A stretch of 18,503 nt of DNA from Coleofasciculus chthonoplastes F2-STO-03 (lineage in GTDB: Bacteria; Cyanobacteriota; Cyanobacteriia; Cyanobacteriales; Coleofasciculaceae). The translations under genes and the position numbers were made by a program. How positions within the stretch are numbered: position 1 is the stretch's first letter; each line of letters opens with the position of its first letter. The stretch spans positions 1 through 18,503 of the forward strand of contig JAVJWO010000169.1 of the NCBI GenBank assembly GCA_040222015.1, given 5' to 3'. The notes under the pieces are model-generated. The model ran no database searches and was not told the DNA's origin. It worked only from the letters and a program-made list of their open reading frames with translations. Below are positions 351 through 18,261 of this stretch, one piece after another.

Positions 351-1214
351 CTAAGCAATTCGCTGGAGAAATTCTTTGGTTAACTCGGTAAACGCTTTAG
401 CACCCGTGGAAGCGGGTTCAGTGAGAACCACGGGTTGAAACTCATCAACGGCTTTAGCGATGGCGACATTGGTGGGGATTTCGGTGATAAAGACTTTATC
501 GTCACCAAAATCAGAACGGACTCGCTTCTTTACTTTTGCCGCCATCGTCGTTGCATGACCCAGGGAAGAAAAGACAATACCCAGTAAATTGAGTGTAGCG
601 CGATCGCTCTGCTTTAATCTTCTGATGCGACCTTCCAAAATCCCCATACCTACAACCGATAGGGGTTCAGGCTTGGCGGGAATCAGATAAAAGTCACTGG
701 CAATTATACCACTGCGCGTCAGCAAATTATCTCCTGGCGGAAAATCCAGCAGAATCCAGTCATAATTAGAGACAATCGGTTGAATAATCCGCTTCACTAA
801 CGCATCTTCCAGATGATTCCAGCCTTTTTCAAAGTCTTGCTGATTGCTATGGGCTTGTGTATAAATCTGGGTAGCTAATAAGAAATCGTTGTACAGTTCG
901 ATATTACCAGGGATCAAGTCCAATCCTTTGACCTGACAAATGTTGGGGACAATCACCTCGTTAACAAGCAGAGACGACAACGAATGGGATTGAAAGGCTT
1001 GATTAACTAATTGTTGTAGCGTGCGTTTTTGTTTGCGGCATTTCGTAAACTGTACCGGAGGGATTAGGCTGAGAGTCGCGTTAATCTGGGTATCGAGATC
1101 AACGATTAAAACTCGCATCCCATGTTCCTTAGCCAGACTTGTCCCCAAGTTGACGGTGAGTGTGGTTTTGCCCACACCCCCTTTCATATTGACGATTGAA
1201 ATAACGTTGCCCAT
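351..1214 (-). CDS. parA: ParA/Soj-family ATPase (no adjacent parB)
   Basis: Deviant Walker A NMKGGVGKTT, A' motif LIVDLDTQINAT, Walker B WILLDFPP, ASDFYLIP and C-terminal IPTNVAIAKA; 287 aa. Confidence 0.92.
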   Translation of the reverse strand: MGNVISIVNMKGGVGKTTLTVNLGTSLAKEHGMRVLIVDLDTQINATLSLIPPVQFTKCRKQKRTLQQLVNQAFQSHSLSSLLVNEVIVPNICQVKGLDLIPGNIELYNDFLLATQIYTQAHSNQQDFEKGWNHLEDALVKRIIQPIVSNYDWILLDFPPGDNLLTRSGIIASDFYLIPAKPEPLSVVGMGILEGRIRRLKQSDRATLNLLGIVFSSLGHATTMAAKVKKRVRSDFGDDKVFITEIPTNVAIAKAVDEFQPVVLTEPASTGAKAFTELTKEFLQRIA

Positions 1215-2688: not shown

Positions 2689-2793
2689 ATATGATGTCCG
2701 GACCCATCACCCCTAATAAAAATGTAGGGACCTGGTAACTAAGCCCCTACTCCCCCCTCACCGTAATTATGGGTATTCAACCGGACATGATAT
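2689..2793. mobile_element. MITE-like element (~105 bp) with an internal REP hairpin
   Basis: Terminal inverted repeats ATATGATGTCCGG (2689-2701) and CCGGACATGATAT (2781-2793) are 12/13 complementary. A GTAGGG..CCCTAC hairpin lies inside at 2724-2750, and CCTCTGCYTACCTCTGCGTT repeats lie on both flanks. Confidence 0.65.
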
Positions 2794-2819: not shown

Positions 2820-5411
2820 TCACAATTCAATCCTTTGGGCAAATAAACTCTGCAACCGCTGCAAATTTGCCCCAACTTTATAAAGTAAATCTCCTTTCCC
2901 CAAAAGATAAGCCGCTTCCGATTGTCTCCCGCCTAAAATAATCTCGGAATCCGCTTCACTAGCTGTCCGCAACGCCACTCTTCCTGGTAAATTTGACCGG
3001 ATAATCGGAGTAACCACTCTCGCTTCTGGGCGTTGCGTGGCAATAATTAAATGGATACCCGCCGCTCTCGTCTTTGAACCCAACCGTGTGATACTCAATT
3101 CTAAAGCATTGCGGATATCTTTTTCGGTCATAAAGTCAGCATATTCGTCAAAGATGCAGACAAGACGGGGTAAGGGTGGGTTATTCTGTTGATTATAAGC
3201 GTCGAGATGAGAACATCCCGCTTGCTCAAATCGCTGATAACGCCGTTCCATTTCTGTGACTAAACTTTCCATCAACGCGATCGCATTGTCGCTATCCTTG
3301 ACGATAGGGGAGTATAACCAGGGGATTTGCTCGAATTCGGGAAAGGTGACACGCTTAGGATCAACCAGGGCGATTTTAAGCTGCTGAGGGGAATGGCGAT
3401 AGAGTAACGATAACAGGAGCGATCGCAAAAATTCACTCTTTCCGCTTCCCGTTGTTCCCCCCACCAGAAAGTGACAGGTATTCGCATCGGATAAGTCGGC
3501 TTCCACGAGTTTCCCCTCTAAATCCACGCCAATGGCAATTTTTACGGGAGCATGGGCTGATGGTGTCCGGGATGTGATATAATTCTCAAGCCGCGCCACT
3601 TGTCGATCTGGACGTGGTAAATCAACACTGACATAGCCAGGTTGCGGCGCAATCAGGGGAGGATGAGTAATCCCAAGTTGTACCTGTAAATCAGCCGATA
3701 ATCTCAGCAACCTGTTAACCGTTACCCCCAGACTCGGTTTCAGTTTCACCCGGATAAACGCTGGACCAACAGCTGTTCCCACACAAGTCACGTCTATCTT
3801 AAAGGATTGTAACGTCTCGATTAACTGTTGCGCGATCGCATCATTGTTCGTAGTAAGCGCTTTAGCGCCATCAGTCTTTGTCGTAGACACTTCAGCGCCA
3901 TCAGAAGTCCCCTCCTCTTCCCCTTTCCTGGGCTGTGTATCTGTACTCGTGACTTCAAAGTAGGTTTGACAGGTTTCCTGTTGAGGACAGATATCACACA
4001 AGTGAGTATTCGACGTGAGCGGTGGCGGATTTGAATGAGTCTGTTGCCAACTCACCCAGTCCTGCATTTGCTGTAACTTATGGGGAATCAACTCATGAAC
4101 CGCCGTTTGCAACTGTTCCCAAGAATAGGCATACTCCTTAAATTCTGGGAGAACACAATACACCGCTGAATCAACCAGCACTCCTTTAGTTTTATTGAGC
4201 ATATAACCATAGAGTGCCACTTGAGCTAATTGCGCTGATGGGTCAACCGGTTCGTAGGTTTTATAATCAATTAAACAGAGACGATTGCGTTCAAAATTAA
4301 ACACTAAACTATCAAATCGCCCTGTCACCTCCTGGGATGTACCATTAGGTAGATTAAAGTGATAACTAAGCTTATTTTCTTCTAAAATAAAGGTTTGATG
4401 AATAACCATTTGATGCAAACAATAGCGGCGATTTACCACTAATAATTCGACCCAACGCTGAATTAGAGCGGTTAAGCCTTGCCACAGCTTTGGCAATACC
4501 GTCGCCATTTCGGGATGGGATTCGATGTAGGGAAAAAATACCTGTTGATAAAATATTTCCTGCATTCCCATGGCGACAGCTTCGCGATTTAATTGCTCAG
4601 CGGACGGTTCTAATAAGTCGGAAACGTGGGAATTTGCTTGAGCGAGTTTGATAAATTGTTCGGCTAAGGTGTGAAACGCTGTACCAATTCCGATAGATTG
4701 ACCGGGTGGAATAAATAAAGTGTTCCCATCAAAATGTTGTTTTAAATAGAATAAACGTGGACATTCAAACGCCACGCGCACTTTAGTTGCACTGAAGGGA
4801 GGATGTTCGGCTGTTTCGGGTTGTGGCTTGGGTGTGATCACGACTGGGGGTGGAGTAGGGGGCTGTGTTAATTGTAATAAATGGCGATGGACATGCGCTA
4901 AATAAACTGTGTCCATTTTGGCATAGTGCAGTTGTTTGGCGGTGAGGGGGCGCTGTCCCCAATCACTGTTTTGTTCGGTTTTATCAACGTTGGTGAAGTG
5001 ACAGAGTTCAACAGCGAGGGTTTTGAGTTGTTTGTTGGAGACTTGCAGGGGATTTTGGCGGGAATTTCTGGTGAGTTTCCGGACGAGTTTGAAGGTACAG
5101 GTGATATTTTGGGCTTGTTGGCTCCCGCCGAGAAATCTTAGATCAAAGCTGGCGTTGTGAAATACTTTCTCTATGTTGGGGTTAACCATAATCTGAGTGA
5201 CGAAATCCCTGACGATATCGGGGTTATCGAGGACATCGAAGATATAGGCGCGATCGCCGGTTCTGTCTGTGGGATCTGCTAATATTTGAATCAGGGAGAG
5301 TCTGGGGTTTGATGTTTGCCAGTCGGCGACTTCTGTGTCTAGCCAGAGGATTGAATAAGTGGCGAGTTGGGATATAGTTTGGCGGATTTCATTGGGGGTG
5401 GTGAGGTACAT
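2820..5411 (-). CDS. Fusion protein: RNase D-like DEDDy 3'-5' exonuclease + PD-(D/E)XK (RecB/AddB/Cas4-like) nuclease + FtsK/SpoIIIE ATPase
   Basis: Exonuclease: WLDTE, FHNASFDL, SDWGQRPL..YAKMD. Nuclease: FSATKV..ECPRLFYL, GRFD, LIDYKT, QVALY, CDICPQQETC. FtsK: alpha domain VGPAFIRVKLKP, Walker A GTTGSGKS, VDPKR, Walker B CIFDEYAD, RAAGIHLIIATQRP and LLGKGDLL. Confidence 0.92.
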   Translation of the reverse strand: MYLTTPNEIRQTISQLATYSILWLDTEVADWQTSNPRLSLIQILADPTDRTGDRAYIFDVLDNPDIVRDFVTQIMVNPNIEKVFHNASFDLRFLGGSQQAQNITCTFKLVRKLTRNSRQNPLQVSNKQLKTLAVELCHFTNVDKTEQNSDWGQRPLTAKQLHYAKMDTVYLAHVHRHLLQLTQPPTPPPVVITPKPQPETAEHPPFSATKVRVAFECPRLFYLKQHFDGNTLFIPPGQSIGIGTAFHTLAEQFIKLAQANSHVSDLLEPSAEQLNREAVAMGMQEIFYQQVFFPYIESHPEMATVLPKLWQGLTALIQRWVELLVVNRRYCLHQMVIHQTFILEENKLSYHFNLPNGTSQEVTGRFDSLVFNFERNRLCLIDYKTYEPVDPSAQLAQVALYGYMLNKTKGVLVDSAVYCVLPEFKEYAYSWEQLQTAVHELIPHKLQQMQDWVSWQQTHSNPPPLTSNTHLCDICPQQETCQTYFEVTSTDTQPRKGEEEGTSDGAEVSTTKTDGAKALTTNNDAIAQQLIETLQSFKIDVTCVGTAVGPAFIRVKLKPSLGVTVNRLLRLSADLQVQLGITHPPLIAPQPGYVSVDLPRPDRQVARLENYITSRTPSAHAPVKIAIGVDLEGKLVEADLSDANTCHFLVGGTTGSGKSEFLRSLLLSLLYRHSPQQLKIALVDPKRVTFPEFEQIPWLYSPIVKDSDNAIALMESLVTEMERRYQRFEQAGCSHLDAYNQQNNPPLPRLVCIFDEYADFMTEKDIRNALELSITRLGSKTRAAGIHLIIATQRPEARVVTPIIRSNLPGRVALRTASEADSEIILGGRQSEAAYLLGKGDLLYKVGANLQRLQSLFAQRIEL

Positions 5412-5424
5412 GGGAGGATTTTTT

Positions 5425-5469
5425 TAAACGCAGAGTAACGCAGAGGTAGGCGCAGAGGGCGCAGAGGGG
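5425..5469. repeat. CGCAGAG/CTCTGCG-family short repeats
   Basis: AAACGCAGAGTAACGCAGAGGTAGGCGCAGAGGGCGCAGAGGGG; its reverse complement resembles 2668-2688 and 2799-2819. Confidence 0.75.
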
Positions 5470-5550
5470 TAAGTGAGGTTTATTGTTGCTCGTTTTGGGT
5501 TAGAAATGTTGACGTTGCTGACGACGAGTTTTGAGTCAGGATTATTTAAG

Positions 5551-7527
5551 TTAGGGGGATGTGTTGTTTTTGGTTGGGGGTTTCCAGCAGACGGATTGAT
5601 CTTGGGGTTTGGCGTCAGGGGGGATGAGGGTGATTTGGTTTTCTTGACAGAGTGTCTGAATTTGCTGATTGATTTGGGATTCATCGATATGGGAGAAGTC
5701 TTGCATGGTTAAATCAACGAGTTTTTGCCGTCCAATCATGAATTGGGTTTTGACGAGGTTTAAGAGGAAGTCTTTGATTTTTATTAAATCGGGTTCAGGC
5801 TTAATAATGGGTTTAGATACAATTCCTATGTCTTGTAACAATGGACAATTCTGTAAAACGTGAGAGTCTCGAATCAATTTTTCTAACGTAGGGAGATCGA
5901 GGGTTTGTTGGTGAATGACTAATTCCCCAGCACCGGCGGAGTTGACTAAAAGCTGATAGGTTCTCAGATAATGGATAGAGTCGAGATGGGGGGTAAGATG
6001 ACGAGGCGGTGAGCCGTTGAAGAGTTTTTTGAATAGTTTATATCCTTTATTCTTGGCTTGACCCAGTTTTTCGGCTCGAACCAGAATCAGAGTATCACAA
6101 CAGTTTTTTTTCAGGTCTTTTTCGCAGGCGTTCATCGCTGCATTGAAGCTTGTCATGTTGGGTTCTTCGTTCCAGAAAATTCCTAGTCGTTCAGTTTTAT
6201 CGGGATGCTGATAACTGAAGGAATAACTACTATACTTAGCATGATTTAAAAGATGAGGGTCAGTGTTGATCTGCAAGGCGTTCATTGCCTGTTGCAACAT
6301 TTGTGTCAGATCAACCGATGAAAATTGACGAATTCGCTCGACTTTTTGTTGGGTTTTGTGGAATTCTTTAAGCCAAATTAATTTAAAAGTGGCAACGGCA
6401 TCTTCTATTGGTGGTTTATGACCTAATTTATGTTCAATAAATAATTCTCCGCCAAGTCCTAATACATTTCGCAAATTGGCTCTACCCCCAGGAAATTTTT
6501 GCTCCAATGCTTGTTTCTGGAGAGGATAAAGGGGAGAGTCGGGTTTAGGAGTCGCTTGATCATGCAGGGAATAGAGTCGGGTTATCCAGAGGGCTTCAGC
6601 TTGTTCAAGGTTTATTGATTTTAGACGAACTTGTTTTTCAATTCCGGCTAAATCGGATTGTTCGAGACGTTCTTTACTCACCTTCCATTGATTCGTTACA
6701 ATGCTGATAATAACCAGAATATTTTTAAGATATTGATTGTGGAACGTTCTATTAAGATTAAATAAGGATTGTAAGTTGGGAATTCCATCAGCAAACTTCG
6801 GTGTCATTTCCGCTTGATCGAAGCAGAGAACAATGGGTTTTGTCGATGCTGAAATTCTGCCAAAGTTGCCGATTATTCCCCGCGCGGCTTCTTCATTATC
6901 GATAGGCTGATTAACCCCTAATGCATTGAGGTCATCTCGATCTAAATTTTCTCCTCGCAACCAGTCACAAGCCAAAAAATATAAATCCGGATTCGTGAGA
7001 CCATACAATACACCAAAGAAATCTCTTGCCTGATAAATACCCGAGGGATAAGTGCTTCTAAAATTGCGAATAAAAAGTCCTCGTTCCCCCAGGATTCTCT
7101 TCATCATGCTGCGATCTTTAAACGCTGATAGTCCTTTCAACCAAAGAATTAATTGAGAACTTTCTTGTCCTTCAGGCTTTTGCATCAGACTATCTACCAT
7201 TTGGCGCAACGTATGTCGCCAAATATGCTGATTATCTGCCCAGGGATCAATATAGATAAAAAAAGCGTCAGGGTTAAGCTTTTTTTTAAGACGTCCTAAT
7301 AAATAACTTTTCCCTGAACCCGAGTCTCCATCCAGTAATATCGTCCGTGTCCGCTGATCTCTGGCGACTAATCGGAGAACCTCAGTCACCTGAGTAATTG
7401 CTTCTTGGTGAATTGAATCAACTGTGGCGGCGACTTGTTGATCTTCTCGCCAAAAGTTTCCGGTTTTAAAGGTTACCGGATCAAAAGGGTTGACTTCTTG
7501 TTTTATAATTTCATCAATGTTTGCCAT
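5551..7527 (-). CDS. Large P-loop (AAA+/STAND-like) ATPase, possibly RcaG-like
   Basis: N-terminal NPFD, Walker A LDGDSGSGKS and Walker B IVLCFDQAE, followed by an alpha/beta domain (LGIFWNEEPN..LILVRAE) and a probable C-terminal winged helix. It starts 58 nt after the RcaD-like gene. The RcaG link rests on gene position only. Confidence 0.8.
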   Translation of the reverse strand: MANIDEIIKQEVNPFDPVTFKTGNFWREDQQVAATVDSIHQEAITQVTEVLRLVARDQRTRTILLDGDSGSGKSYLLGRLKKKLNPDAFFIYIDPWADNQHIWRHTLRQMVDSLMQKPEGQESSQLILWLKGLSAFKDRSMMKRILGERGLFIRNFRSTYPSGIYQARDFFGVLYGLTNPDLYFLACDWLRGENLDRDDLNALGVNQPIDNEEAARGIIGNFGRISASTKPIVLCFDQAEMTPKFADGIPNLQSLFNLNRTFHNQYLKNILVIISIVTNQWKVSKERLEQSDLAGIEKQVRLKSINLEQAEALWITRLYSLHDQATPKPDSPLYPLQKQALEQKFPGGRANLRNVLGLGGELFIEHKLGHKPPIEDAVATFKLIWLKEFHKTQQKVERIRQFSSVDLTQMLQQAMNALQINTDPHLLNHAKYSSYSFSYQHPDKTERLGIFWNEEPNMTSFNAAMNACEKDLKKNCCDTLILVRAEKLGQAKNKGYKLFKKLFNGSPPRHLTPHLDSIHYLRTYQLLVNSAGAGELVIHQQTLDLPTLEKLIRDSHVLQNCPLLQDIGIVSKPIIKPEPDLIKIKDFLLNLVKTQFMIGRQKLVDLTMQDFSHIDESQINQQIQTLCQENQITLIPPDAKPQDQSVCWKPPTKNNTSP

Positions 7528-7585
7528 GATTATCTTTAGAAGTGATTACAAACAGAATTGGCGGGTATGGTGAAAAATGAGTCCG

Positions 7586-8449
7586 CTAGTTGACAATAAT
7601 AAAAAATAAAGATCCGCCAATTTCTTGAGGAATCCCAGCTTGAAGTTGTTCTGAGGTATAGTGCATCGCCTCAACTAATGAACTCAACTCAATTTTGTCT
7701 TCCCGTTGCAAACGATAGAGGGCTTGATCTAAGTCATCCCTAGATAAGGGAGGTTGTAATTTCTGACGCAGATGAAAAATGGGTAAATAATTGTCGGTTC
7801 CTAGTTTTTTATCTAACTGCTGAATCAGTTGTAAAATTTCTGTATCTGTTGGTTTCTGGGTCAGTACAGGTTCTGAACTCAACGAAGGTTGGGGTTGGGT
7901 GACAGTTACAGGCGGATTCACTTGACTCGGAAGTGATTTTCGCAAAAACAGCAGATAATTCCCCAGCAGTTCTAAACTAATCACTGGATTTGTGCCTTTT
8001 TTCGGGATATAATCCTCTCGTAGCTGATCGAGTCCGCGCTGAGTCATCCACACTTCAGCCTTTTGGCGTTTCAGTTGTTTTTCGACTTCAATGAATCCCC
8101 GTTCATGGAAGCGTTGTAAAATAGCATCGCGTTCGGCTGACTTCAACGACTTGATATCGATTTTGCTGGGTTTAACTTTTCCCGATGCTTTACCGATACT
8201 GTTGAGTACCCTAAGTTCACTGGGAGAGAGGGGAACTTGATCCGGTTCCACATTCAACAGAGCGCGACCGGGTGGTAAAATTTTAACCGATGCGATTTCA
8301 CGGGAGAAATCGAGCCAACCACGCGCTTCTAAATCGCGGACAAGTTTGTTTTTGCCTTTGATACTATTGAATGGTTTTGCCGACAGTGGAGAACGGTAGT
8401 CCGGACATCCTAGCAGTTTCAGGAGAAATTTTAGCTCCTTGGTTTCCAT
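7586..8449 (-). CDS. rcaD: RcaD-like multi-winged-helix DNA-binding protein
   Basis: The N-terminus METKELKFLLKLLG..DFSREIASVKILPPG resembles proteins I recall annotated as transcription factor RcaD. It is basic, with wHTH-like segments (LEARGWLDF, FHERGFIEV..WMTQRG, NYLPIFHLRQKLQPPLSRDDLDQALYRLQREDKIEL). The ATG at 8449 is preferred; 8467 is the alternative. Confidence 0.7.
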   Translation of the reverse strand: METKELKFLLKLLGCPDYRSPLSAKPFNSIKGKNKLVRDLEARGWLDFSREIASVKILPPGRALLNVEPDQVPLSPSELRVLNSIGKASGKVKPSKIDIKSLKSAERDAILQRFHERGFIEVEKQLKRQKAEVWMTQRGLDQLREDYIPKKGTNPVISLELLGNYLLFLRKSLPSQVNPPVTVTQPQPSLSSEPVLTQKPTDTEILQLIQQLDKKLGTDNYLPIFHLRQKLQPPLSRDDLDQALYRLQREDKIELSSLVEAMHYTSEQLQAGIPQEIGGSLFFIIVN

Positions 8450-8476
8450 GGAAATGCCTAACCTCATCTATCGTTA

Positions 8477-8506
8477 ATTCTACTTTAGCTTGAGGGGTGA
8501 TCGCAA
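8477..8506 (-). promoter_or_regulatory. Putative sigma70-type promoter for the three-gene unit
   Basis: The minus strand has TTGCGA (8501-8506), an 18-nt spacer and TAGAAT (8477-8482), about 28 nt upstream of the preferred ATG. Confidence 0.35.
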
Positions 8507-8708: not shown

Positions 8709-9626
8709 TCAGGGTTTTCTTAAACATTCTGTTCCTGGAATGTGACCAAATATTTGTTGAGAATACTCTAGTAACTCCTGATTATCAAATAACCTTCGGT
8801 AGGACGGATCATCAGCGAAGTACTTCCATCGGCTACAAACATCCATATTCATCGCTTTTCCGTGATATTCACGTCCTTCAAAGGAACTACCATCACCTCT
8901 ACGACTGACTGTATTGATGCCAGTATCCGAAAACTCTAGGTTGAGCTGAGACGCAATTTCTCGGCGATAATCTATGTCAGCAAACCACTGATTATAATTA
9001 ATACAAACTTTTTTGTTTTTCAATGAATTTGTTTCCCCTAAATATTCTTTGGCATAGTCAAGCCACACATCTATATCTGTTTTGTTTTTATCATTGACAC
9101 CTCTATAGTCTCTTTTGATTCGACTCGCCAGCAGATTAAATGGATCTCGCAAAATTAAAACATCATACTTGTATTGACTCTTGCCAAAATAAAGATCATG
9201 CTTGAACTCAAATAAAGGATTGGTGATTTGCGCCAGACTATAATCTTCGTAGCTATGGATTAAACAATCTTTTTTTTCAAAAAAACCTTTGGCTTCTTGT
9301 CGCCACCACTCAATGTCTTTGGTTTTGTCCTTTCGGAGTAAATCTTCGTATTTTTCCCGATAAGGATTTCTATTAACTCGGATATTGTTCAGGTGTCTAA
9401 CCTTTCCAGTTTCTTGCTTTTCTATCCAATGAATAATGGCATGATTGCCACTGCGTCTTAATCCCACAACCCGCATCTCTTTATGATTAATAACTTGCGA
9501 CAGAATATGCCGTTGTGAAATGGCTCGACCTACATCTTCAACGCTATGATAGAATTGACGATTGGCTTTTTGTAGTAATGTCGATGATTCTTGCACAAGC
9601 TGAAGGAAAATTGATTTTTGAGACAT
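8709..9626 (-). CDS. Sulfotransferase-like P-loop protein
   Basis: 5'-PSB-like RVVGLRRSGNHAI, 3'-PB-like LILRDPFNLLAS and INYNQWF..REIASQLNL; last gene of the EPS run. The start could be 9626 or 9665. Confidence 0.65.
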   Translation of the reverse strand: MSQKSIFLQLVQESSTLLQKANRQFYHSVEDVGRAISQRHILSQVINHKEMRVVGLRRSGNHAIIHWIEKQETGKVRHLNNIRVNRNPYREKYEDLLRKDKTKDIEWWRQEAKGFFEKKDCLIHSYEDYSLAQITNPLFEFKHDLYFGKSQYKYDVLILRDPFNLLASRIKRDYRGVNDKNKTDIDVWLDYAKEYLGETNSLKNKKVCINYNQWFADIDYRREIASQLNLEFSDTGINTVSRRGDGSSFEGREYHGKAMNMDVCSRWKYFADDPSYRRLFDNQELLEYSQQIFGHIPGTECLRKP

Positions 9627-9706
9627 GGTTATTACTATCAATCGTCTAGCGACACTTAAAATCATAGCCTAATGTTTTTTTTATCGCACAGTGCGCCCAA
9701 AAACGT

Positions 9707-10693
9707 TTAACCCGCTTCTCGCACCTGATCGGTATAATCTTTGGGACGCATTTGACGAAATAGTTGCAACGCCGCTTGCCGCAAACTTAGGGGTAAATAA
9801 GATAAAATGACTCCCAATTGGGCTTTCCGAGAACTGCCAATAATCTCCGCCACCTCTTGCAACATTATTCGTCCCTGAATTGTATCCCCATTTTCAATTA
9901 ACCGTAACCCCAACGCTTCTTTTGTCCATGCCAATTTTTGTATCCTTAGTTTCTCTAATTCCTGATCTGGAAATCGATAACTATCAATACAAAAAACCTT
10001 AGCCTTCAAAAAATGCAGATTCTGCCTTAAACTCGTCTGTCCCCCGTGAAACCGATACTCCATTAAATACTCTGGCAAAAAATACCCCTGCTTAAGCGCG
10101 ATCGCTAATCGTACCAGTAAATCAAAATCCTCACAACCATCGGCTTCTGGGCGCATATAGTCCACATCCTGCAAACAGGCGCGACGAAACAAGGTTGAAC
10201 CCACCTGCAAACTTTGATATTGAAACGTTTGCCGCATTAAATCAGGAATTATACCGGGCTTCAGCTTATCTTTTCCCCACTTCGCTGCATTCTCTTTCGT
10301 CGCTGACTCATCGCGATTGCCGTGTTTATTAATAACCCAGTGATTTGTACAGACAAAATCCACTGTTGGTTCCGCCTCTAATACTGCCACCGTTTTTTCT
10401 AGGAATTCTGGTGTCAGGGCATCATCGTCATCAAATTTGATAAAATAGTCTCCCTGTGCGGCATCAAATCCAGAACGCATATTTTTACTGCGCCCTATAT
10501 TATTTTCATGGCGAACATAGCGAATCCTGGAATCATCCCACTGACTGACAACTGTCGGTGTATCATCAGTTGAACCATCGTCGCAAATAATTAACTCAAA
10601 ATCTTTATAGGTTTGACTCAGAACACTATTAACCGAATTGACCAGATAGTTGGCACGGTTGTAAGTGGGAATACAAACACTAACATTAGACAT
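9707..10693 (-). CDS. Glycosyltransferase family 2
   Basis: VSVCIPTYNRA, ELIICDDGSTDDT, FIKFDDDD (DxD) and CEDFDL. Confidence 0.93.
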   Translation of the reverse strand: MSNVSVCIPTYNRANYLVNSVNSVLSQTYKDFELIICDDGSTDDTPTVVSQWDDSRIRYVRHENNIGRSKNMRSGFDAAQGDYFIKFDDDDALTPEFLEKTVAVLEAEPTVDFVCTNHWVINKHGNRDESATKENAAKWGKDKLKPGIIPDLMRQTFQYQSLQVGSTLFRRACLQDVDYMRPEADGCEDFDLLVRLAIALKQGYFLPEYLMEYRFHGGQTSLRQNLHFLKAKVFCIDSYRFPDQELEKLRIQKLAWTKEALGLRLIENGDTIQGRIMLQEVAEIIGSSRKAQLGVILSYLPLSLRQAALQLFRQMRPKDYTDQVREAG

Positions 10694-10706
10694 AATAGAT
10701 TCGGTA

Positions 10707-10736
10707 AGGGAATAGGGACTAGGCTACAGGGAATAG
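10707..10736. repeat. Degenerate heptamer STRR (AGGGAAT-like, about 4 units)
   Basis: AGGGAAT AGGGACT AGGCTAC AGGGAAT AG. Confidence 0.55.
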
Positions 10737-10825
10737 CTTGAGCAGAGGTATCTGAGTTTTGCCCGGTTACAAATCACTCTTTTATCCTTTGTAACATGGC
10801 TAACCTGATGCCAAACCATTTCTTG

Positions 10826-11818
10826 CTATTCATTTAAATAAATACTATTGAGGACATCAACAATTCTGCGCCGAAAAAAACTATCATTCTGTTTATACCA
10901 ATCACGAGCATTATCACCTAATCTTTTTTTTGTCATGTAATCCATTCCTAAAACGTCGTTTATCTTTTGTTCTAATGCCTGGGAATCAACGTAATAGTTG
11001 TTCCCCAAACACTGGGGATTTGTCAGACAATAATCCACTAAAATCCCTCTATCTGCTGTGATCAACTCATTCATCGGTGGTGCATTGGTCGTAATTACTA
11101 CTGAACGACAGCTCATCGCTTCGGCAATCAAATGACCAAAACCTTCTGCTTCTGAAGGACACAGGTGAATACCATGACTGTTCTGATATTCCCTTAATAC
11201 TGTATCATCCAGATAATGAGTAATATACTCAATATTAGTTGTACTCATTGAGTCAGGCTCTTGCCAATTCCGCCGGATAGTTAGGGGGGGCCACTCTGGA
11301 TGATGCCGCCATAGGTTGATAATTGTATTTGTGCCTTTCTGAGCGCTTTTACCTGCCAGATGGAAAAACTTATCACAATCTTTGCTGGATTGAGGGTTGA
11401 ATTGGTCAAGACTGGTAAAGCCAATAAATTTAGTTTGGCAGCCTAATTTGTCAAAAATGGATTGGGCGAATTTAGTTTTACAAAGGATGTAGTCAAACTG
11501 ATTTAAAAAAGGACGCCACTCGTCTCGGAACCATTCCTGATTTGGGATTAAACAGTTGAGGCGAGCATAAGGAAACCAAGAGGGGATAACATACTCTAAA
11601 AACAGGTTAATATCATAGGGGGGATTTTTGTTGTTCAATTCGCTAGTAAACCGCTCGACATAGGTTGATAGACGCTGAATTTTATGGTTAAGTGTAGATT
11701 TGCCCACTTCAAAAACAGTAACTTTGAAATTATAGTTTTGCAAGACTTCAGTGAGAATACGTGCGTCCCGACTTAAACCAAAGTCATTATCTACCATTAT
11801 TATATTGACACGCTTCAT
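10826..11818 (-). CDS. GT-B fold glycosyltransferase (GT4-like)
   Basis: LCPSEAEGFGHLIAEAMSC (EX7E motif), VITTNAPPMNE and LGDNARDW. The ATG at 11818 is preferred over the TTG at 11824. Confidence 0.85.
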   Translation of the reverse strand: MKRVNIIMVDNDFGLSRDARILTEVLQNYNFKVTVFEVGKSTLNHKIQRLSTYVERFTSELNNKNPPYDINLFLEYVIPSWFPYARLNCLIPNQEWFRDEWRPFLNQFDYILCKTKFAQSIFDKLGCQTKFIGFTSLDQFNPQSSKDCDKFFHLAGKSAQKGTNTIINLWRHHPEWPPLTIRRNWQEPDSMSTTNIEYITHYLDDTVLREYQNSHGIHLCPSEAEGFGHLIAEAMSCRSVVITTNAPPMNELITADRGILVDYCLTNPQCLGNNYYVDSQALEQKINDVLGMDYMTKKRLGDNARDWYKQNDSFFRRRIVDVLNSIYLNE

Positions 11819-11893
11819 AGTCAATTCAGTAAGTTAAATAATCGATTGATATAGATTAGAATCGCTTTTAAAATAAAGGATAAAAATTAACTT

Positions 11894-12076
11894 TTATGCT
11901 TTTGAACATTTGATTAAGCTTGTTTTTTGTTCTTTTAACCAGTTTGGAGAGGTCAGTATTTTGGGTTTTTGCTGAAGATCTTGCCGAAAACGGTACTCTA
12001 AAAATATATCCTGATACGGAATTCTTACATTTTTACCTTGACTCAGACGCGCAAAATATTGATAAGAATAGTTCAT
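11894..12076 (-). pseudogene. Stranded 3' fragment paralogous to the C-terminus of 14999..16012
   Basis: MNYSYQYFARLSQGKNVRIPYQDIFLEYRFRQDLQQKPKILTSP aligns without gaps to MNYSSKDFAKLCKGEDVDIRYKDIFLYYRFMKQPDQKPKQIKSP (24/44 identical). Homology stops immediately upstream of the Met. Confidence 0.85.
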
Positions 12077-12240
12077 AATCCCTGAACTATAGTCGCATAA
12101 TAATTAACTAAAACATTCCAATTCGGTGTAATCAATTGATTTATCCGGGGCATTTGTTTTCAATGTCACTGAACAACAGCTCATAGCTTCGCCGAGCCAA
12201 TGCCGAACAGTTTATCTACAGAACAATTTTAAAATATATT

Positions 12241-13470
12241 CTAGCCCAAAATTTTCGTAATTAGATCAAAGTTAGTGGCGGCTTCCTCTTTTATTTGAGG
12301 CAACACTTTGGTGAGCTGGTTAGCTACTTCTGTTCGTCTACTCCAAGCTTGACGGAGCGTCGTGCAGGCAACATCAGGATCTAAAAACTGTTGGATAGGA
12401 ATAAGCAATCCGTTGTTCATTGACTCAGTTCCTAAAAGTCTTGTCATAATCCCTCTAGCCTTGACTGAATAACCAACCACAAGAGTACAAACGCCGCTGG
12501 AGAGTCCTGCCATAGCAGCATGCATACGTTCAGAAATGACTAGGTTACAAGCACCGATCAAGCCTTTAAATTCTGACGCTGTGTGATCTGCGCTCGCTAA
12601 TCGAACACGCGGGTCGAAGTTAAGGTCTCTAAGTAAATTAGTTGCCAAGGTTAAATCATTATTCGTAGGTTTAAATTCTTGGACGTGTGGTATAATCAAC
12701 ACTTGAGCATCAAGTTCATTGAGGATTGTCCTGATTACCTCACACCAACTCTTCAAATGCTCTTTTGCATTGCAGCGAGCATAGCGGCAGATCCCCTGGC
12801 TAGGAGAAATCGCCACAATTGGTTGATCTGACGTAATGCCGTAGAAATTTAGAATTCTAGCTACCTCTTCAGATGATGGAGGTTGAAGGAGAAATGCTGG
12901 ATCGGCAGTCTGTTTCACTAAGTCTGATGAAATACCAAGCTGTCTAGTTACGTAGTCGTAAGAAAGAGGTTCTCTAACAGTAATAAGCTGTGAACGCCGA
13001 GCTATCTGTACCCATGCTTTTGCTTGTTGGTCAGTTTTGAACGGACCAATGGATTGAGCCAAAAACACAACTGGTGTATTAGCTTTAAATGCCACTTCCA
13101 ATGGTGGCGTTTGGTAATGGAATCCACCATAATCGGAGCTAAAAAGATCGCCCCCAGAAGCAATCACAACAGAGGCATCGAGAATTAGTTGTTTAACAGT
13201 CTGATATTTGGGTAAAAGCTTTGGATAAAGTTGCGATAGCTGAGCTTGCAACTTGCGTAGGCGCGTTCGATAACCAGTCATCAGGTCATTTGTATCCACC
13301 AAGTTGATGTTGTAATTTTGCAATCGATTTTGATCGTAGGCGGGTGTTTCAGTCAGAATTTTGATTGAAAGGTCAGGCTGGCGATGGCATAGCTGTTCAA
13401 TTGTTGGCACAACAATTGCTTCAACTCCTCGATTACTCAGCCCGGTTATACCTGTGATAATTGCTTCCAT
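12241..13470 (-). CDS. Polysaccharide pyruvyltransferase family (WcaK-like)
   Basis: NRGVEAI, SGGDLFSSDY, AQSIGPF, ITVREPLS, TADPAFLL, ERMHAAMAGL and GYSVKA. Confidence 0.92.
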   Translation of the reverse strand: MEAIITGITGLSNRGVEAIVVPTIEQLCHRQPDLSIKILTETPAYDQNRLQNYNINLVDTNDLMTGYRTRLRKLQAQLSQLYPKLLPKYQTVKQLILDASVVIASGGDLFSSDYGGFHYQTPPLEVAFKANTPVVFLAQSIGPFKTDQQAKAWVQIARRSQLITVREPLSYDYVTRQLGISSDLVKQTADPAFLLQPPSSEEVARILNFYGITSDQPIVAISPSQGICRYARCNAKEHLKSWCEVIRTILNELDAQVLIIPHVQEFKPTNNDLTLATNLLRDLNFDPRVRLASADHTASEFKGLIGACNLVISERMHAAMAGLSSGVCTLVVGYSVKARGIMTRLLGTESMNNGLLIPIQQFLDPDVACTTLRQAWSRRTEVANQLTKVLPQIKEEAATNFDLITKILG

Positions 13471-13518
13471 TTATTTCAATGCGATAAATGTATTATTCGA
13501 TAGTTTAGTTGCTTGGTT

Positions 13519-14970
13519 TCATCTACCCAGCATCTGTTTTACCAATTGCTTTAAACGCTGTGCTATTTGCATCCATCTGGATGGTTTGTACAACATTCGA
13601 TATTGCTTAATTAGTGGTTCCATTTTCTTAATAAATAAATGAAAATCACCTACATCAACCGCCTGTTTGAAGGCAATATGACTTTGTTTAGCTAACACGA
13701 CACGCATTACCTGTTGTTTATTGAACAAGGGTTTGAACAAATTTACTCTAGCTTGAATTCGCTTTGGAGGATGCCATTCACCTTGATGAGCCGTTAAATG
13801 TAAACGATAAGCTAACCCCTCACGTCGATGACGGAATCCCGATTCCTGGGAACGAACCACTTCGTCAGCATCGATTTGATCGAGTTTTAACTTGCCCATC
13901 GCTATACCTTGTTCCAATAACTCACGGATTTTGGAGTGGCGGACAATTACTACGTTTGTACCTTGGCTGTCCTGGATATATTGAGGCAGCCAAGCATCAC
14001 CAACACTAACATCTGCGGCTTCAGCAACTACATCATCACAATAGTCACAGGCTTTGTACTTGAAAAATCCTAACCCCCAGTCTTTACCGTAAAGTTTATC
14101 AACTGGACTAGTATCAGTAACCATTTGACCATCTCTTAGTCCTACTACCTCAATTCCATACTTATTAGCATTTCTACCGGGTATCTTTTTACGGAAGTCG
14201 AACTCTACAATGTTACCCGGTTCAATGCCACACTGCCATGCAAACATATCAGCAAACCGCCTGCTCTTGAGATGACCACAAACTAGCCCGACACAAAACT
14301 TGATCCGTTCCGCTAATATAGCATCCTGACGCATCAGGAGACGAACCGCTTTGAGAAAACAAGGTATCCCGACAATGACATAGCGTCCCGGTTGTTCTCG
14401 GACTTGCCGAATAACTTCAGACATTTCAATGGGATAGTAGCGAGACTTGGCCCCCTGCTTCACCTGTTCGATTGTCGTGGATATTTGGTAGTGGAATAGC
14501 CTAGAATCATCCTCACAAGGGTGACGAGGCTGAACGTGAATCACTCGATCAACTAAACCTTCCAGCATCAGGTTAGTCACAATCCAAGTACCCATTCCAC
14601 CTGAACTGCCGCGATCGCGAAAATTTCCCTCAGACACGAAACCTGCATAGGTAGCTTGATAATAGCCGATTTTGTTGTGGTATGGACAGTCTTTGCCAAA
14701 CAGTTCCTGACCTATCTGATCTTCGTTTTGTGCGCGACTTGAGAATGGGCATACAGCCTCCACTGAAAGCTCAAAGGACGACTGTTCAGCTAATGGATTA
14801 ATAGTAGCAGTGAACTTGCCGTACTCGTCCATCTGCATCTGGATTGGAGATTCGCTGACTGCAGCGCATGCACCGCAGCCTATGCAATAGCCGCCCTTGA
14901 CTACAGTCTTAAAGAGATTTCCTAGCTGTGAGTTTTCATTAAGGACAGTGATGTTTGCCGAGCTACTCAT
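13519..14970 (-). CDS. FrhB/FdhB-family (F420 hydrogenase beta-subunit-like) Fe-S flavoprotein
   Basis: N-terminal CIGCGAC..VCPF, SSGGMGT, KSRYYP, VGIPC, GLVCGH, ACDYCDD and DVSVGDAW. ATG at 14970. Confidence 0.9.
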   Translation of the reverse strand: MSSSANITVLNENSQLGNLFKTVVKGGYCIGCGACAAVSESPIQMQMDEYGKFTATINPLAEQSSFELSVEAVCPFSSRAQNEDQIGQELFGKDCPYHNKIGYYQATYAGFVSEGNFRDRGSSGGMGTWIVTNLMLEGLVDRVIHVQPRHPCEDDSRLFHYQISTTIEQVKQGAKSRYYPIEMSEVIRQVREQPGRYVIVGIPCFLKAVRLLMRQDAILAERIKFCVGLVCGHLKSRRFADMFAWQCGIEPGNIVEFDFRKKIPGRNANKYGIEVVGLRDGQMVTDTSPVDKLYGKDWGLGFFKYKACDYCDDVVAEAADVSVGDAWLPQYIQDSQGTNVVIVRHSKIRELLEQGIAMGKLKLDQIDADEVVRSQESGFRHRREGLAYRLHLTAHQGEWHPPKRIQARVNLFKPLFNKQQVMRVVLAKQSHIAFKQAVDVGDFHLFIKKMEPLIKQYRMLYKPSRWMQIAQRLKQLVKQMLGR

Positions 14971-14998
14971 AATCAATAATTAATAATAATACACCCAA

Positions 14999-16012
14999 TC
15001 AACTAACAGATATTTTCTTAACTTTTTGCACAAAATTTTGCAAATGTCGGTTAGTCTTTACGAATAAGCTGGGTGATTTTATTTGCTTAGGTTTCTGATC
15101 GGGTTGTTTCATGAAGCGATAATATAAAAATATATCTTTGTAACGAATATCAACATCTTCTCCTTTACATAACTTGGCGAAATCCTTAGACGAGTAGTTC
15201 ATGTAGTGAATGCGATGAATCGGTTTTAATCCCTGCTCGTTATAGAGAACCTGATCAATATTCACGAAGGGATCGGCATCCGCGCAGTTACCTGTGCGAT
15301 CTTGCCCGTTGGGGCTGAGCGTGAAGTTATATAACGGGCGATCGCACCGAAGCGTCATATAATTAAACAAAAATGCATCATCCCACCAACGAGATAGCCA
15401 AGCTATTTCTTCCCGTTCAATAAGCTGCTCTTTCAAAAGTGATAGTTCTCGTTCATCAAAAATTCCTTGCTTTGAACCAAAAAAGCTAGAACAATGCAGT
15501 TTGGGTCGGATCTGTTCTTCTTTATAAATGCCACTTCCTTCAATCAGAGGAATATCCAGTGCTGCCGAATCTATCGATTTCTTGTGTTCCCAATCATCAA
15601 ACACAAAGTCATAGGCGTCTAACTTTTCCAACACATCCTCCACCGACTTCATGGCTAGACTATCAGCATCGTAAAAGACAAACCTTTCAAACTGCCCATC
15701 AAAAGCCGCGAACCTTCTATAATGACCTTTGCCCCAGGGGGGGCGAGTAATCGCCTTCTTTTTGGCGGCTGGATAAGCTGCCCAAACCTGTGTGGCAAAG
15801 TCTTCCCAACGTTGAATCGATTCGCGATTATCAAACAGTGTGACATTGGCTCTGGAATCAACTTCCGGCTTTACTCGTTCGAGTCGTTCGTCATAGGGAA
15901 TCACACAAACTGGAATATCAGGACTAACATTCACCTCAATGCTGTTGAGTAAGGCAACGAGTTGGTCATAAACTGCATCATTAGCTAGGGTATAAATACC
16001 AAAGGATGACAT
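14999..16012 (-). CDS. Npun_R2821/Npun_R2822-like protein (GT-A-like, cyanobacterial EPS loci)
   Basis: N-terminus GIYTLANDAVYDQLVALLNSIE..CVIPYD, FVFYDADSL (DxD), GNCA..DPF and IHRIHYM. The family name is from recall. Confidence 0.7.
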   Translation of the reverse strand: MSSFGIYTLANDAVYDQLVALLNSIEVNVSPDIPVCVIPYDERLERVKPEVDSRANVTLFDNRESIQRWEDFATQVWAAYPAAKKKAITRPPWGKGHYRRFAAFDGQFERFVFYDADSLAMKSVEDVLEKLDAYDFVFDDWEHKKSIDSAALDIPLIEGSGIYKEEQIRPKLHCSSFFGSKQGIFDERELSLLKEQLIEREEIAWLSRWWDDAFLFNYMTLRCDRPLYNFTLSPNGQDRTGNCADADPFVNIDQVLYNEQGLKPIHRIHYMNYSSKDFAKLCKGEDVDIRYKDIFLYYRFMKQPDQKPKQIKSPSLFVKTNRHLQNFVQKVKKISVS

Positions 16013-16167
16013 AGAGAAAAGTCCTCACTGTAGCAGTTTTCCAATAGCTTAACCCATTTTTGGGAAGCGTGGTTGAAGTCGAATACGCTTGGAAGTAGTC
16101 CCGGCGGTGCTAGGAACCGAGTCTGAGTCGATACTGGTATAGTTGGACACTAATTCTTGATAAAAGT

Positions 16168-17148
16168 ATGAACCCCGATCGCACTCCCGATAGTCAACCC
16201 CATCCCTCCTTTGTCCCGAAGGTATCCGTCGTTGTCCCCATCTACAACGGTGCAGCCGACATACCCGACTTAATCCAGTGTCTCTTCTCACAAACGTACC
16301 CCAAGGATCAGGTAGAATACCTCCTCGTAGACAATAATAGCCGCGATCGCACCCCTGATATCCTGCACCAAGCGGCTCAAGACGCCGAAGCTCAAGGCAT
16401 CACCCTTCACCCCCTCACTGAAAACCAGATTCAAAGTTCCTACGCCGCTCGCAATACAGGCATCAAAGCCTCCACTGGTGAAATTCTAGCCTTCACTGAT
16501 GCCGATTGTCGCCCCCTTCCCCAGTGGTTAAGTCTCTTAGTTCAGCCCTTTGTCAATCCCAAAGTCGGATTAGTTGTGGGTGAAATTTCCGCTTTACCCG
16601 GTAAAACCTTGCTCGAAAAACACGCCGAACGCCAAGGAACATTAAGCCAAAAAAACACCCTGGATCACCCATTTTATCCCTACGGTCAAACCGCCAACTT
16701 AGCCATTCGTCGTCAAGCCTTACAAGAAGTCGGCTTATTCCGTCCCTACATGACAACTGGAGGAGATGCGGATATTTGTTGGCGAATTCAGCGTCAGACT
16801 CAATGGCAACTAGACTTTGCTGAAACAGCCATTATCCAACACCGTCACCGTACTAACCTAAAGGAATTCCGTAGCCAATGGCAACGCTATGGACGTTCAA
16901 ATAAATACTTACACGAACTGCACGGCGTTGAGTTGCAACCGAAATTAACCTCAAAAAAATCTTTATATTTAATCAGTCGTTGGCTGCTCAAAGAATTGCC
17001 ACTAACCAGCGGACAAGTTATTGCCGGAAAAGCCTCTTTTGGGGATGTGCTAAAAACTCCAATTAATCTGTACGGCGCTTGGTATCGCGACCTCGGGCAA
17101 CAACAAACTCAACTCGATGAAAAAGCGAATAAAATTGATTGGCTGTAA
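16168..17148 (+). CDS. Glycosyltransferase family 2
   Basis: VSVVVPIYNG, LVDNNSRDRT, YAARNTG, AFTDADC, ANLAIRR, GGDADICWR and QWQRYG. Confidence 0.93.
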   Translation: MNPDRTPDSQPHPSFVPKVSVVVPIYNGAADIPDLIQCLFSQTYPKDQVEYLLVDNNSRDRTPDILHQAAQDAEAQGITLHPLTENQIQSSYAARNTGIKASTGEILAFTDADCRPLPQWLSLLVQPFVNPKVGLVVGEISALPGKTLLEKHAERQGTLSQKNTLDHPFYPYGQTANLAIRRQALQEVGLFRPYMTTGGDADICWRIQRQTQWQLDFAETAIIQHRHRTNLKEFRSQWQRYGRSNKYLHELHGVELQPKLTSKKSLYLISRWLLKELPLTSGQVIAGKASFGDVLKTPINLYGAWYRDLGQQQTQLDEKANKIDWL

Positions 17149-17171
17149 ATAATTTTTTAATTTTGAAGGGT

Positions 17172-17230
17172 GTAGGGGCGGGTTTTACCATTATCGTTAC
17201 TTGTCACCCAGATGTCACTAAACCCGCCCC
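17172..17230. repeat. Complete GTAG-type REP hairpin
   Basis: GTAGGGGCGGGTTTTACC, a spacer of about 30 nt, then AAACCCGCCCC, located just after a stop codon. Confidence 0.85.
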
Positions 17231-17328
17231 CTCTGAATGACAGCGTAACGCCGATTTGCCGATTCGTTTGATTCTTGTGTTATAACAGAGCTGGTTAGAC
17301 TCCCTAGCGACAACTCACCCCGACAGTT

Positions 17329-18261
17329 ATGCCAACGCCTCAGATTGCTGCGATTATCTGTACTCACAACCGAGATGCGTATCTAGGCGCTGCCATTGAT
17401 AGCCTATTAGCCCAAGATTGTGATAATTTTATAGTCGTAGTGGTCGATAACGCCTCTAGCGATCGCACTCGTGAGATTGTTGAAGCCCGTATCTCTCACC
17501 CTCAGCTAAAATACGTTTACGAACCCGTTATCGGTCTTTCCGTAGCACGCAATACGGGCGCAAAGGAAACCACTGCTCCTATTCTCGCCTATTTAGATGA
17601 TGATGCCGTCGCCAGTCCCCAATGGCTGAGAGTTCTCCTAGAGGCTTATCACCAAAATGAAAAATTGGCAGTAGCTGGCGGTAAAGTCACCCTAATCTGG
17701 CCCCCCGGCGTCGAACCCCCCAGCTGGATATCCCCAGAACTCGCTGGCAATCTAGGACTGTATGATCTCGGAGATAGCGTCGTTTATATCAAAGAACCTG
17801 GTTTAACACCCAGAGGCTTAAACTACTCCATCCGGCGTACCTTCTTAGAACAAATTGGCGGTTTTGATCCTAATCTAGGACGTCAAGGTAAAAAATTACT
17901 CTCCAACGAAGAATTATACGTGACCGAACTCGCCCTCAAACAAAGCTGGCAAGTAGCCTATCTCCCCGATGCCGTCGCCGCCCATAACGTCGCCCCAGAA
18001 CGCCTCAAAGCCAGCTGGTTTTTACAGCGTAGCTGGTGGCAAGGGATTAGCGAATGTTATCGCGAAGAAGTGGCAGGTCGAACTGGGGTACGTCAGTTAG
18101 GACGAGGAGGAGAACGCATCGCCCGGGGACTCTACAAATCTGCGAAACATTTGACTGACCCAGCCAAACGGTTCGATAATCTAGTTTACGCTTATGGGCA
18201 GATTGGTTATCTAAGTGCCGCCATTCAAGCTATGCTAATCAAACCCAAGGATGAAGTCTGA
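17329..18261 (+). CDS. Glycosyltransferase family 2
   Basis: [47 protein letters not shown] and RSWWQG. Confidence 0.93.

Follow-up and report, generated by a model that had tools for sequence, protein, structure and literature searches.

HerA/FtsK capture systems, predicted from genome comparison, are proposed to localize to invader DNA, pump it and cut it (Rakesh, Aravind and Krishnan, Nucleic Acids Res 2024; PMC10853773). Their parts, as described there, include an Orc/CDC6 ATPase with an inactive restriction endonuclease (REase) domain inserted before a C-terminal domain of the winged helix-turn-helix (wHTH) type, an active REase, a HerA/FtsK motor (accompanied by FtsK-alpha in one set) and a wHTH protein, and some subsets have a multi-wHTH protein resembling DndG, others a motor to which a 3'-5' exonuclease is fused (PMC10853773). 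Here we describe a three-gene operon of the cyanobacterium Coleofasciculus chthonoplastes F2-STO-03, encoded within the first 18,503 nucleotides of contig JAVJWO010000169.1 (this whole stretch is hereafter the window), which, judged from its sequence, fits the Orc/CDC6-coupled HerA/FtsK capture systems. It comprises homologues of rcaD and rcaG followed by a nuclease-FtsK fusion gene, here called F. Our reading, which we hold at a probability of about 0.5, is that rcaD-rcaG-F encodes a DNA-targeted capture-and-degrade machine of this kind, most likely directed against invading or extrachromosomal DNA. The original prediction, made from the window's letters, had taken the operon for an undescribed system without a named counterpart; that claim fails, since the first two genes have RcaD and RcaG as homologues and the composition is described in PMC10853773. 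Its mechanistic sketch, in which a wHTH protein recognizes DNA, an ATPase acts as switch or loader and an FtsK ring feeds two nucleases, does match the published inference, and our domain and fold results fit it.

The first two genes are known from chromatic acclimation. In Calothrix (Tolypothrix, Fremyella) PCC 7601, RcaD binds to the promoter of cpc2 and, during acclimation, influences several phycobiliprotein operons (Noubir et al., 2002, Mol Microbiol 43:749, cited in PMC2799420; PMC4752607), while RcaG, a putative ATPase encoded downstream of rcaD, was proposed to aid this binding (PMC2799420). An RcaD homologue from Lyngbya, accompanied by an RcaG-like neighbour, bound a promoter fragment of the secondary metabolite jamaicamide in a gel shift (PMC2799420), and RcaD is a phosphoprotein according to the title of Sobczyk et al. 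(1994), cited in the same paper. The operon in the window has the same gene order, rcaD and then the ATPase gene, and its gene 1 is 59-72% identical to homologues named 'transcription factor RcaD' by NCBI; the role published for the Calothrix pair is regulation of phycobiliprotein operons (PMC2799420). In the main text of PMC10853773 the string 'cyanobacteri' has 0 occurrences and neither RcaD nor RcaG is named (figure 7 and the supplement lie outside that count), and our literature search returned no paper linking RcaD or RcaG to capture systems.

The protein encoded by F begins with a DEDDy 3'-5' exonuclease domain, continues with a Cas4/AddB-like PD-(D/E)XK nuclease domain and, after a variable low-complexity linker, ends with the alpha and motor domains of FtsK. 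The Walker and nuclease motifs, described as intact in the original prediction, are conserved among homologues as well. At least 95% of 21 F homologues of the same domain order retain the exonuclease residues D25, E27, D90, Y163 and D167, and across 24 F sequences the nuclease residues D367 and K384, the motor's Walker A (651-659) and its Walker B pair D755 E756 are invariant, with D or E at position 382. Also invariant in all 24 are C217, C472, C475 and C481, so that one N-terminal and three C-terminal cysteines frame the PD-(D/E)XK core, a pattern which we take to be that of the Cas4/AddB-type iron-sulfur nucleases. Cas4 models match F weakly (PADLOC, 1.2e-4; TIGR00372, 4.7e-4, below its cut-off). 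Relatives of the exonuclease domain in the PDB are diDNase, RNase D and NanoRNase C, and the alpha and motor domains together match the Pseudomonas aeruginosa and Escherichia coli FtsK motor structures in the PDB at 2.6e-52. Pfam reported no gamma-domain family in F at E <= 0.01, the protein ending 68 residues past the Pfam motor match, and, from the domain positions, an exonuclease that starts at residue 3 leaves no room for an N-terminal membrane anchor. A standalone paralogue of the exonuclease domain is also encoded in the same genome.

RcaD has no Pfam family, and its fold matches are to winged-helix folds only; three such units are predicted, the first two of which score a probability of 31% against each other in hhalign. 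Alignment with 22 homologues places its likely start at the seventh codon (M7), which coincides with the end coordinate given in the original prediction. The Pfam matches of gene 2 are weak and of P-loop type (AAA_16, KAP and AAA_22), and its predicted structure has the fold of Cdc6/ORC-type AAA+ ATPases and a winged helix at the C-terminus. Walker A residues G67, G70, G72 and K73, together with D237, are invariant in 40 of 40 RcaG sequences. A predicted RcaG + RcaD complex scored 0.50 and a control with an unrelated partner 0.49, which counts neither way.

To establish how consistently the three genes occur together, we searched one sample of 401 cyanobacterial genomes with each of the three proteins. 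The orthologous FtsK module F was found in 38 of them, about a tenth; the F query had matches in 104 genomes overall, many of those beyond the 38 being the standalone exonuclease paralogue only. In 35 of the 38 genomes, which belong to many families and have different flanks, rcaG is immediately followed by F, and rcaD lies directly upstream of rcaG in 34 of these 35 F-linked loci, the remaining one being cut by a contig end. Three genomes (G071, G370 and G162) have the rcaD-rcaG pair far from F. Among the 41 loci first mapped, rcaD directly precedes rcaG in 40. The original prediction had named lack of co-occurrence in other genomes as grounds for giving it up; because the three genes stand together in 35 of the 38 genomes with F, that objection falls away. 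The rcaD-rcaG core also occurs on its own: clusters of rcaD with one or two rcaG genes and no F are present in G158, G194, G178, G198 and G394 and as second clusters in G008, G092, G328 and G014, and the pair is duplicated in tandem in G364, G008, G092 and G194. From species-representative genomes 71 loci were kept, 66 in named cyanobacteria and 5 in unnamed bins.

Compared with the capture systems of PMC10853773, the operon has in common an Orc/CDC6-clade AAA+ ATPase with a C-terminal wHTH domain and an insert before it, a PD-(D/E)XK nuclease of REase fold that its motifs suggest to be of the active type, an FtsK motor with FtsK-alpha, a separate protein predicted to be of multi-wHTH type, and an FtsK component with a fused 3'-5' exonuclease. 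In that paper the fusion and the multi-wHTH gene are features of separate subsets; here they are found together. The DndFGH/SspFGH systems have a similar three-gene logic, with an ATPase, a multi-wHTH protein and a large effector whose last part is a HerA/FtsK motor, and the F motor matches positions 1358-1741 of the 1766 in the PADLOC SspH model (9.5e-72), that is, its C-terminal part; mad8 is likewise matched at the level of a domain. However, only the motor matches, the SWI2/SNF2 or kinase parts of DndH are missing, and the window has no Dnd/Ssp modification genes. Because PADLOC gives domain-level matches only, the operon is not a Dnd/Ssp system.

Similarly, HerA-NurA and AddAB/RecBCD couple a motor to nucleases of both polarities and, as the sequence suggests for F, include a Cas4/AddB-like four-cysteine nuclease. 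In contrast to these, F has a true FtsK (alpha + beta) with the nucleases fused to it, there is no HerA, superfamily 1 (SF1) helicase or NurA, and the cassette is not universal. With the cellular FtsK/SpoIIIE proteins F shares the alpha and motor domains, but it has nucleases in place of the N-terminal membrane domain, and a gamma domain, which reads FtsK orienting polar sequences (KOPS), was not found. The Nostoc punctiforme gene annotated 'ftsK' (Npun_R4092) is co-expressed with division genes (PMC12691664); we do not use it as evidence on F.

The distribution of the cassette is patchy, and its architecture varies among close relatives. In genus g22 it is present in one of eight genomes; G314 has stops in all three genes although its congener G020 is intact; G059, G044 and G032 retain only a 3' remnant of F next to the ParA-like gene discussed below; and G366 lacks the cassette while G026, of the same genus, has it. 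F occurs without the exonuclease domain in 4 genomes, and in G002, of the window's own family, an 893-residue F has the order PD-(D/E)XK, exonuclease, FtsK in one frame, an order probably shared by several homologues named Coleofasciculus that cover 40-46% of the query in their best local alignment. The 1121-residue F of G214 (contig C126, 9508-12873) carries a Ser/Thr kinase (Pkinase, 209-474) between its exonuclease and nuclease parts, matched by PADLOC PD-T4-6 models down to 1e-60. In this locus a separate PD-(D/E)XK gene stands upstream of rcaD, rcaG and F are separated by a DUF29 gene, and downstream come three Uma2 genes. This kinase insertion is worth recording given that RcaD has been reported as a phosphoprotein (title cited in PMC2799420).

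The core has other partners as well. G274 pairs rcaD-rcaG with a standalone PD-(D/E)XK protein, and contig C195 of the window's genome (5211-10370) holds a paralogous trio of an RcaD-like protein (249 residues; hhalign 84%, E 7.5e-6), an RcaG-like ATPase (671 residues, 25% identity) and a DUF1802 protein (480 residues), adjoined by a convergent TIR_2 gene with ThsB-like matches; the trio fits a remark in PMC10853773 on related Orc/Cdc6 genes combined with nuclease partners of other kinds. When 51 RcaG-family proteins are placed in a tree, members of families f1 and f2 are scattered over the clades without clustering. All family labels together change 20 times, where 13 is the minimum and shuffling gives a mean of 29.8, and we therefore see some vertical signal plus transfer or old paralogy. 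Pseudanabaena PCC 7367 has a full rcaD-rcaG-F set beside IS21 on pPSE7367.01, a plasmid of 329 kb predicted to be conjugative. The decay, deletion, domain shuffling, duplication, scattered RcaG lineages and plasmid copy together resemble the dynamics of conflict systems.

RcaG also has a paralogue, G2, which is 36-42% identical to it and stands between the GT2 glycosyltransferase gene and rcaD in G026. In four genomes without rcaD and F, G2 is alone and intact (668-702 residues), and it therefore seems to be retained for some separate function.

On the capture-and-degrade reading, the triple winged-helix RcaD would bind DNA, the step for which bench work on homologues exists. RcaG would bind ATP and assemble with RcaD on the DNA as a switch or ring loader, by analogy with ORC/Cdc6, TnsC and BrxC. 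F, which by homology of its motor may form a soluble FtsK hexamer lacking both membrane anchor and gamma domain, would then be recruited or loaded and pump double-stranded DNA, and the two nucleases on its N-terminal face, whose catalytic motifs are intact, would destroy what comes in, the DEDDy domain presumably acting 3'-5' and the Cas4-like four-cysteine PD-(D/E)XK domain 5'-3' or as an endonuclease. Speaking for this reading are the domain content and intact motifs, the Cdc6/ORC fold of RcaG and winged-helix folds of RcaD, the rcaD-rcaG-F synteny, the conflict-like dynamics, the C195 trio beside a TIR gene, the match to the SspH C-terminus and the published prediction (PMC10853773).

Several observations weigh against it. 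Bench support is confined to DNA binding by RcaD homologues, the rest being drawn from domains, folds and gene order, and the bench work assigns RcaD a role in phycobiliprotein gene expression (PMC2799420). The inactive-REase insert that defines the published class is not confirmed in RcaG by hhalign, structure or Atlas searches: its insert of about 200 residues (377-570) has the order helix-strand-strand-strand-helix-strand and no conserved acidic/lysine motif, gives a probability of 0.3% in hhalign against the PD-(D/E)XK profile of F, and returned unnamed clusters only in an ESM Atlas feature search of residues 372-575, while structure searches with the whole RcaG model were dominated by the AAA+ domain and barely probed the insert. 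The partner wHTH protein is called 'rapidly evolving' in PMC10853773, whereas RcaD is well conserved here, with a mean column identity of 72% in 23 sequences. A search of 50,697 phage records turned up no RcaG relative. At the level of whole systems PADLOC returned no match, and neither RcaD nor RcaG matches a DndF/G or SspF/G model at E <= 0.01; the original prediction had expected such a result to support novelty, and the absence of a full-system match does stand, but novelty is not upheld, the architecture having been predicted in PMC10853773.

The genomic neighbourhood, too, gives little encouragement to a defence role. ORFs (open reading frames) were mapped in 41 loci, later 57, and neighbours were tallied at the 32 loci that hold F. 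A co-oriented ParA-like gene (~294 residues) follows F in 17 of the 32, and in 8 a GT2 glycosyltransferase gene stands upstream of rcaD, either adjacent to it or separated by a single ORF. Among the 126 nearest ORFs of these loci (two per side) PADLOC found no complete known defence system and, without a random-locus baseline, no defence-island signal, the enrichment that the original prediction had proposed to test for. The individual matches were five Uma2-like genes and one each of a PtuB-like HNH, mad2 (the window's methyltransferase), mad3, a Cas4-like and a pVip-like radical SAM gene, the remaining ones being trivial P-loop or short-stretch matches. Whereas the neighbourhoods are mobile in PMC10853773, many here are conserved chromosomal contexts, and because the GT2/ParA context is conserved in many genomes the cassette looks vertical rather than mobile. 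The evidence on mobility is thus mixed, with patchiness, scattered RcaG lineages and one plasmid copy on one side and the GT2/ParA flanks and lack of a recurrent mobility gene on the other.

This chromosomal setting bears on the main rival, which we consider unlikely, namely a genome-maintenance machine in which RcaD and RcaG aim the FtsK motor with its nuclease tip at the cell's own DNA, whether in end resection and repair (as in HerA-NurA or AddAB), in clearing DNA trapped in the septum, or in the turnover of surplus chromosomes in polyploid cells. F is the sole FtsK/SpoIIIE-family locus found in the window's 7.7-Mb genome, most sampled cyanobacteria have no FtsK-motor match with the F query, and canonical FtsK is largely missing from cyanobacteria according to a review (PMC7766704). 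F is moderately conserved (56-65% identity across families) and lies in a conserved context beside an order-universal ParA-like gene, with no defence island seen. A maintenance function is, however, hard to reconcile with a cassette found in only 38 of 401 genomes and decayed or deleted in viable close relatives (G314, G059, G044 and G032; G366 compared with G026). The ParA-like gene persists without the cassette and is hence separable from it, and housekeeping genes do not usually show shuffled domains or, as RcaG does, scattered lineages. If the same recurring ParA-like genes are instead set beside the complete rcaD-rcaG-F set next to IS21 on pPSE7367.01 and the ParB_N/Rho_N + HSDR_N-ParA pair that replaces the cassette at the same locus in several genomes, they could suggest a plasmid or mobile-element function: segregation, incompatibility or the processing of transferred DNA, with the FtsK motor used as in conjugative transfer. 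We regard this as highly unlikely, as just one record among 72,556 from plasmids holds RcaG, the cassette's neighbours include no recurrent relaxase, integrase or replication gene, and two nucleases whose motifs appear intact would suit destruction better than transfer.

The published work on RcaD invites a different account, in which RcaD and RcaG serve light-harvesting genes as transcription factor and assisting ATPase, and the FtsK fusion next to them has no connection with that role. Binding of RcaD at the cpc2 promoter, the aid attributed to RcaG and the gel shifts with the Lyngbya homologue (PMC2799420) all agree with it, but those gel shifts used promoter fragments and are compatible with broad DNA binding. 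We give this account the least credence of those considered, since F follows rcaG in 35 of 38 F genomes of many families with different flanks, an ORC/Cdc6-type ATPase is not a usual transcription cofactor, and the rcaD-rcaG core is also paired with other nuclease-type partners (PD-(D/E)XK in G274, DUF1802 in the window's genome). A fourth reading would join the two bodies of work: RcaG might act as an ORC/Cdc6-style loader of a nuclease-tipped FtsK hexamer at phospho-regulated RcaD sites, the target being resident DNA, such as surplus chromosome copies or plasmids of the polyploid cell, under the control of light or nutrient signalling. Although we think it decidedly unlikely, it would, if true, reconcile phosphorylation-dependent binding of RcaD at light-harvesting promoters with the adjacent nuclease motor and explain the G214 variant with a Ser/Thr kinase built into the motor protein.

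If the capture-and-degrade reading is correct, a chromatic-acclimation factor and its ATPase, known for twenty years, would form the half that targets a DNA-destroying motor, and the role published for them would need re-examination. The value as a discovery is limited, the architecture being already in print as a prediction (PMC10853773), but the cassette would offer a compact and tractable three- or four-gene test of the HerA/FtsK capture idea, which so far comes from genome comparison, and of the ability of an ORC/Cdc6-like ATPase to load an FtsK ring or set it off. Should the cassette degrade incoming plasmid DNA, this would also bear on the genetic tractability of filamentous cyanobacteria.

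The ORF map agrees with the original prediction in giving three co-oriented genes with gaps of 58 and 139 nucleotides, the latter partly repeat (Table 1). A promoter-like pair does precede rcaD, and the word 'plausible' used for it is as far as one can go, because promoter- and terminator-like sites are not enriched over shuffles (17 found, 11.2 +/- 3.2 expected). The absence of methylase, integrase and cas genes was borne out in those large ORFs of the window that were scanned for families, in which no integrase, cas or DNA-methylase family was found; the one methyltransferase gene downstream is of a small-molecule type, and no modification gene belongs to the rcaD-rcaG-F cassette. Metatranscriptome contigs of 4.0-5.0 kb span the junctions of F with rcaG and of rcaG with rcaD in 4 of 4 RNA-labelled runs. 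These contigs extend into the upstream GT2 gene, and such libraries may contain DNA; we do not count them as proof of co-transcription, as contigs cannot show a single transcript.

Table 1. Coordinates of the rcaD-rcaG-F cassette, its protein domains and flanking signals in the window.
Feature	Position	Strand	Details
Gene 1, rcaD homologue	8467..7586	minus	ORF of 293 residues; probable start at 8449; three predicted winged-helix units (residues 9-71, 82-151 and 208-292) joined by a variable linker
Gene 2, rcaG homologue	7527..5551	minus	ORF of 658 residues; AAA+ core and lid ~41-368, alpha/beta insert ~377-570, C-terminal winged helix 580-648
Gene 3, F (nuclease/FtsK fusion)	5411..2820	minus	ORF of 863 residues
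F domain 1, DEDDy 3'-5' exonuclease	4872..5405	minus	Residues 3-180; DNA_pol_A_exo1, 2e-27 (Pfam)
F domain 2, PD-(D/E)XK nuclease, Cas4/AddB-like, four conserved cysteines	3966..4796	minus	Residues 206-482; PDDEXK_1, 7e-18
F domain 3, FtsK alpha	3615..3869	minus	Residues 515-599; FtsK_alpha, 1e-10
F domain 4, FtsK/SpoIIIE motor	2823..3566	minus	Residues 616-863; FtsK_SpoIIIE match 616-795, 8e-42
Spacer between rcaD and rcaG	7528..7585		58 nucleotides
Spacer between rcaG and F	5412..5550	minus	139 nucleotides; two short tandem arrays within 5427-5468, at 5427-5445 (period 10, 1.9 copies) and 5449-5468 (period 9, 2.2 copies)
Promoter-like -35/-10 pair upstream of rcaD	8477..8506	minus	TTGCGA-18-TAGAAT; consensus match only
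Terminator-like hairpin	2724..2750	minus	70 nucleotides past the F stop; consensus match only

The S-adenosylmethionine (SAM) methyltransferase gene (1676-2506), of low G+C content (0.36-0.37), lies between F and the ParA-like gene, and a 318-residue ORF without a family (8709-9665) lies between GT2 and rcaD; contigs about 97% identical to the window skip both in 4 of 4 runs, with joints at 1321->2641 (methyltransferase) and 8653->9701 (318-residue ORF). Because these contigs join across both, we regard the two as strain-specific insertions into the order GT2-rcaD-rcaG-F-ParA. The methyltransferase was considered as a modification partner of the cassette and rejected, given its small-molecule families, low G+C content and absence from those contigs.

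The ParA-like gene is present in 108 of the 401 genomes, including 45 of 45 of family f5 and 20 of 20 of family f6, in most cases without the cassette. Membership as a fourth gene was rejected as unproven, the gene being widespread without the cassette and intact where the cassette decays (G314), and because it persists on its own we treat it as a conserved neighbour. The copy in the window (351-1214) belongs to a paralogue group observed in families f1 and f16 only (62-70% identity), and the order-wide gene (~50-53% identity) stands at the end of contig C148 (7422-8360) in the same genome. Contigs C169 and C148 probably abut, because both ParA-like genes stand in tandem after F in G095. Where the cassette, or part of it, is vacant, a convergent pair adjoins the order-wide ParA-like gene in G160, G366, G104, G166, G318 and G083 (the last from the window's family), consisting of a ParB_N + Rho_N protein (~190-245 residues) and an HSDR_N-ParA fusion (~455-465 residues); it may be a replacing cassette of its own kind. 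Upstream of the cassette, positions 8709-18261 hold polysaccharide-type genes, with three GT2 glycosyltransferases and other large ORFs that have, as far as seen, no link to it. Positions 1-334 of the window show very high depth and many loose ends in the runs, and resemble a repeat at a contig edge.

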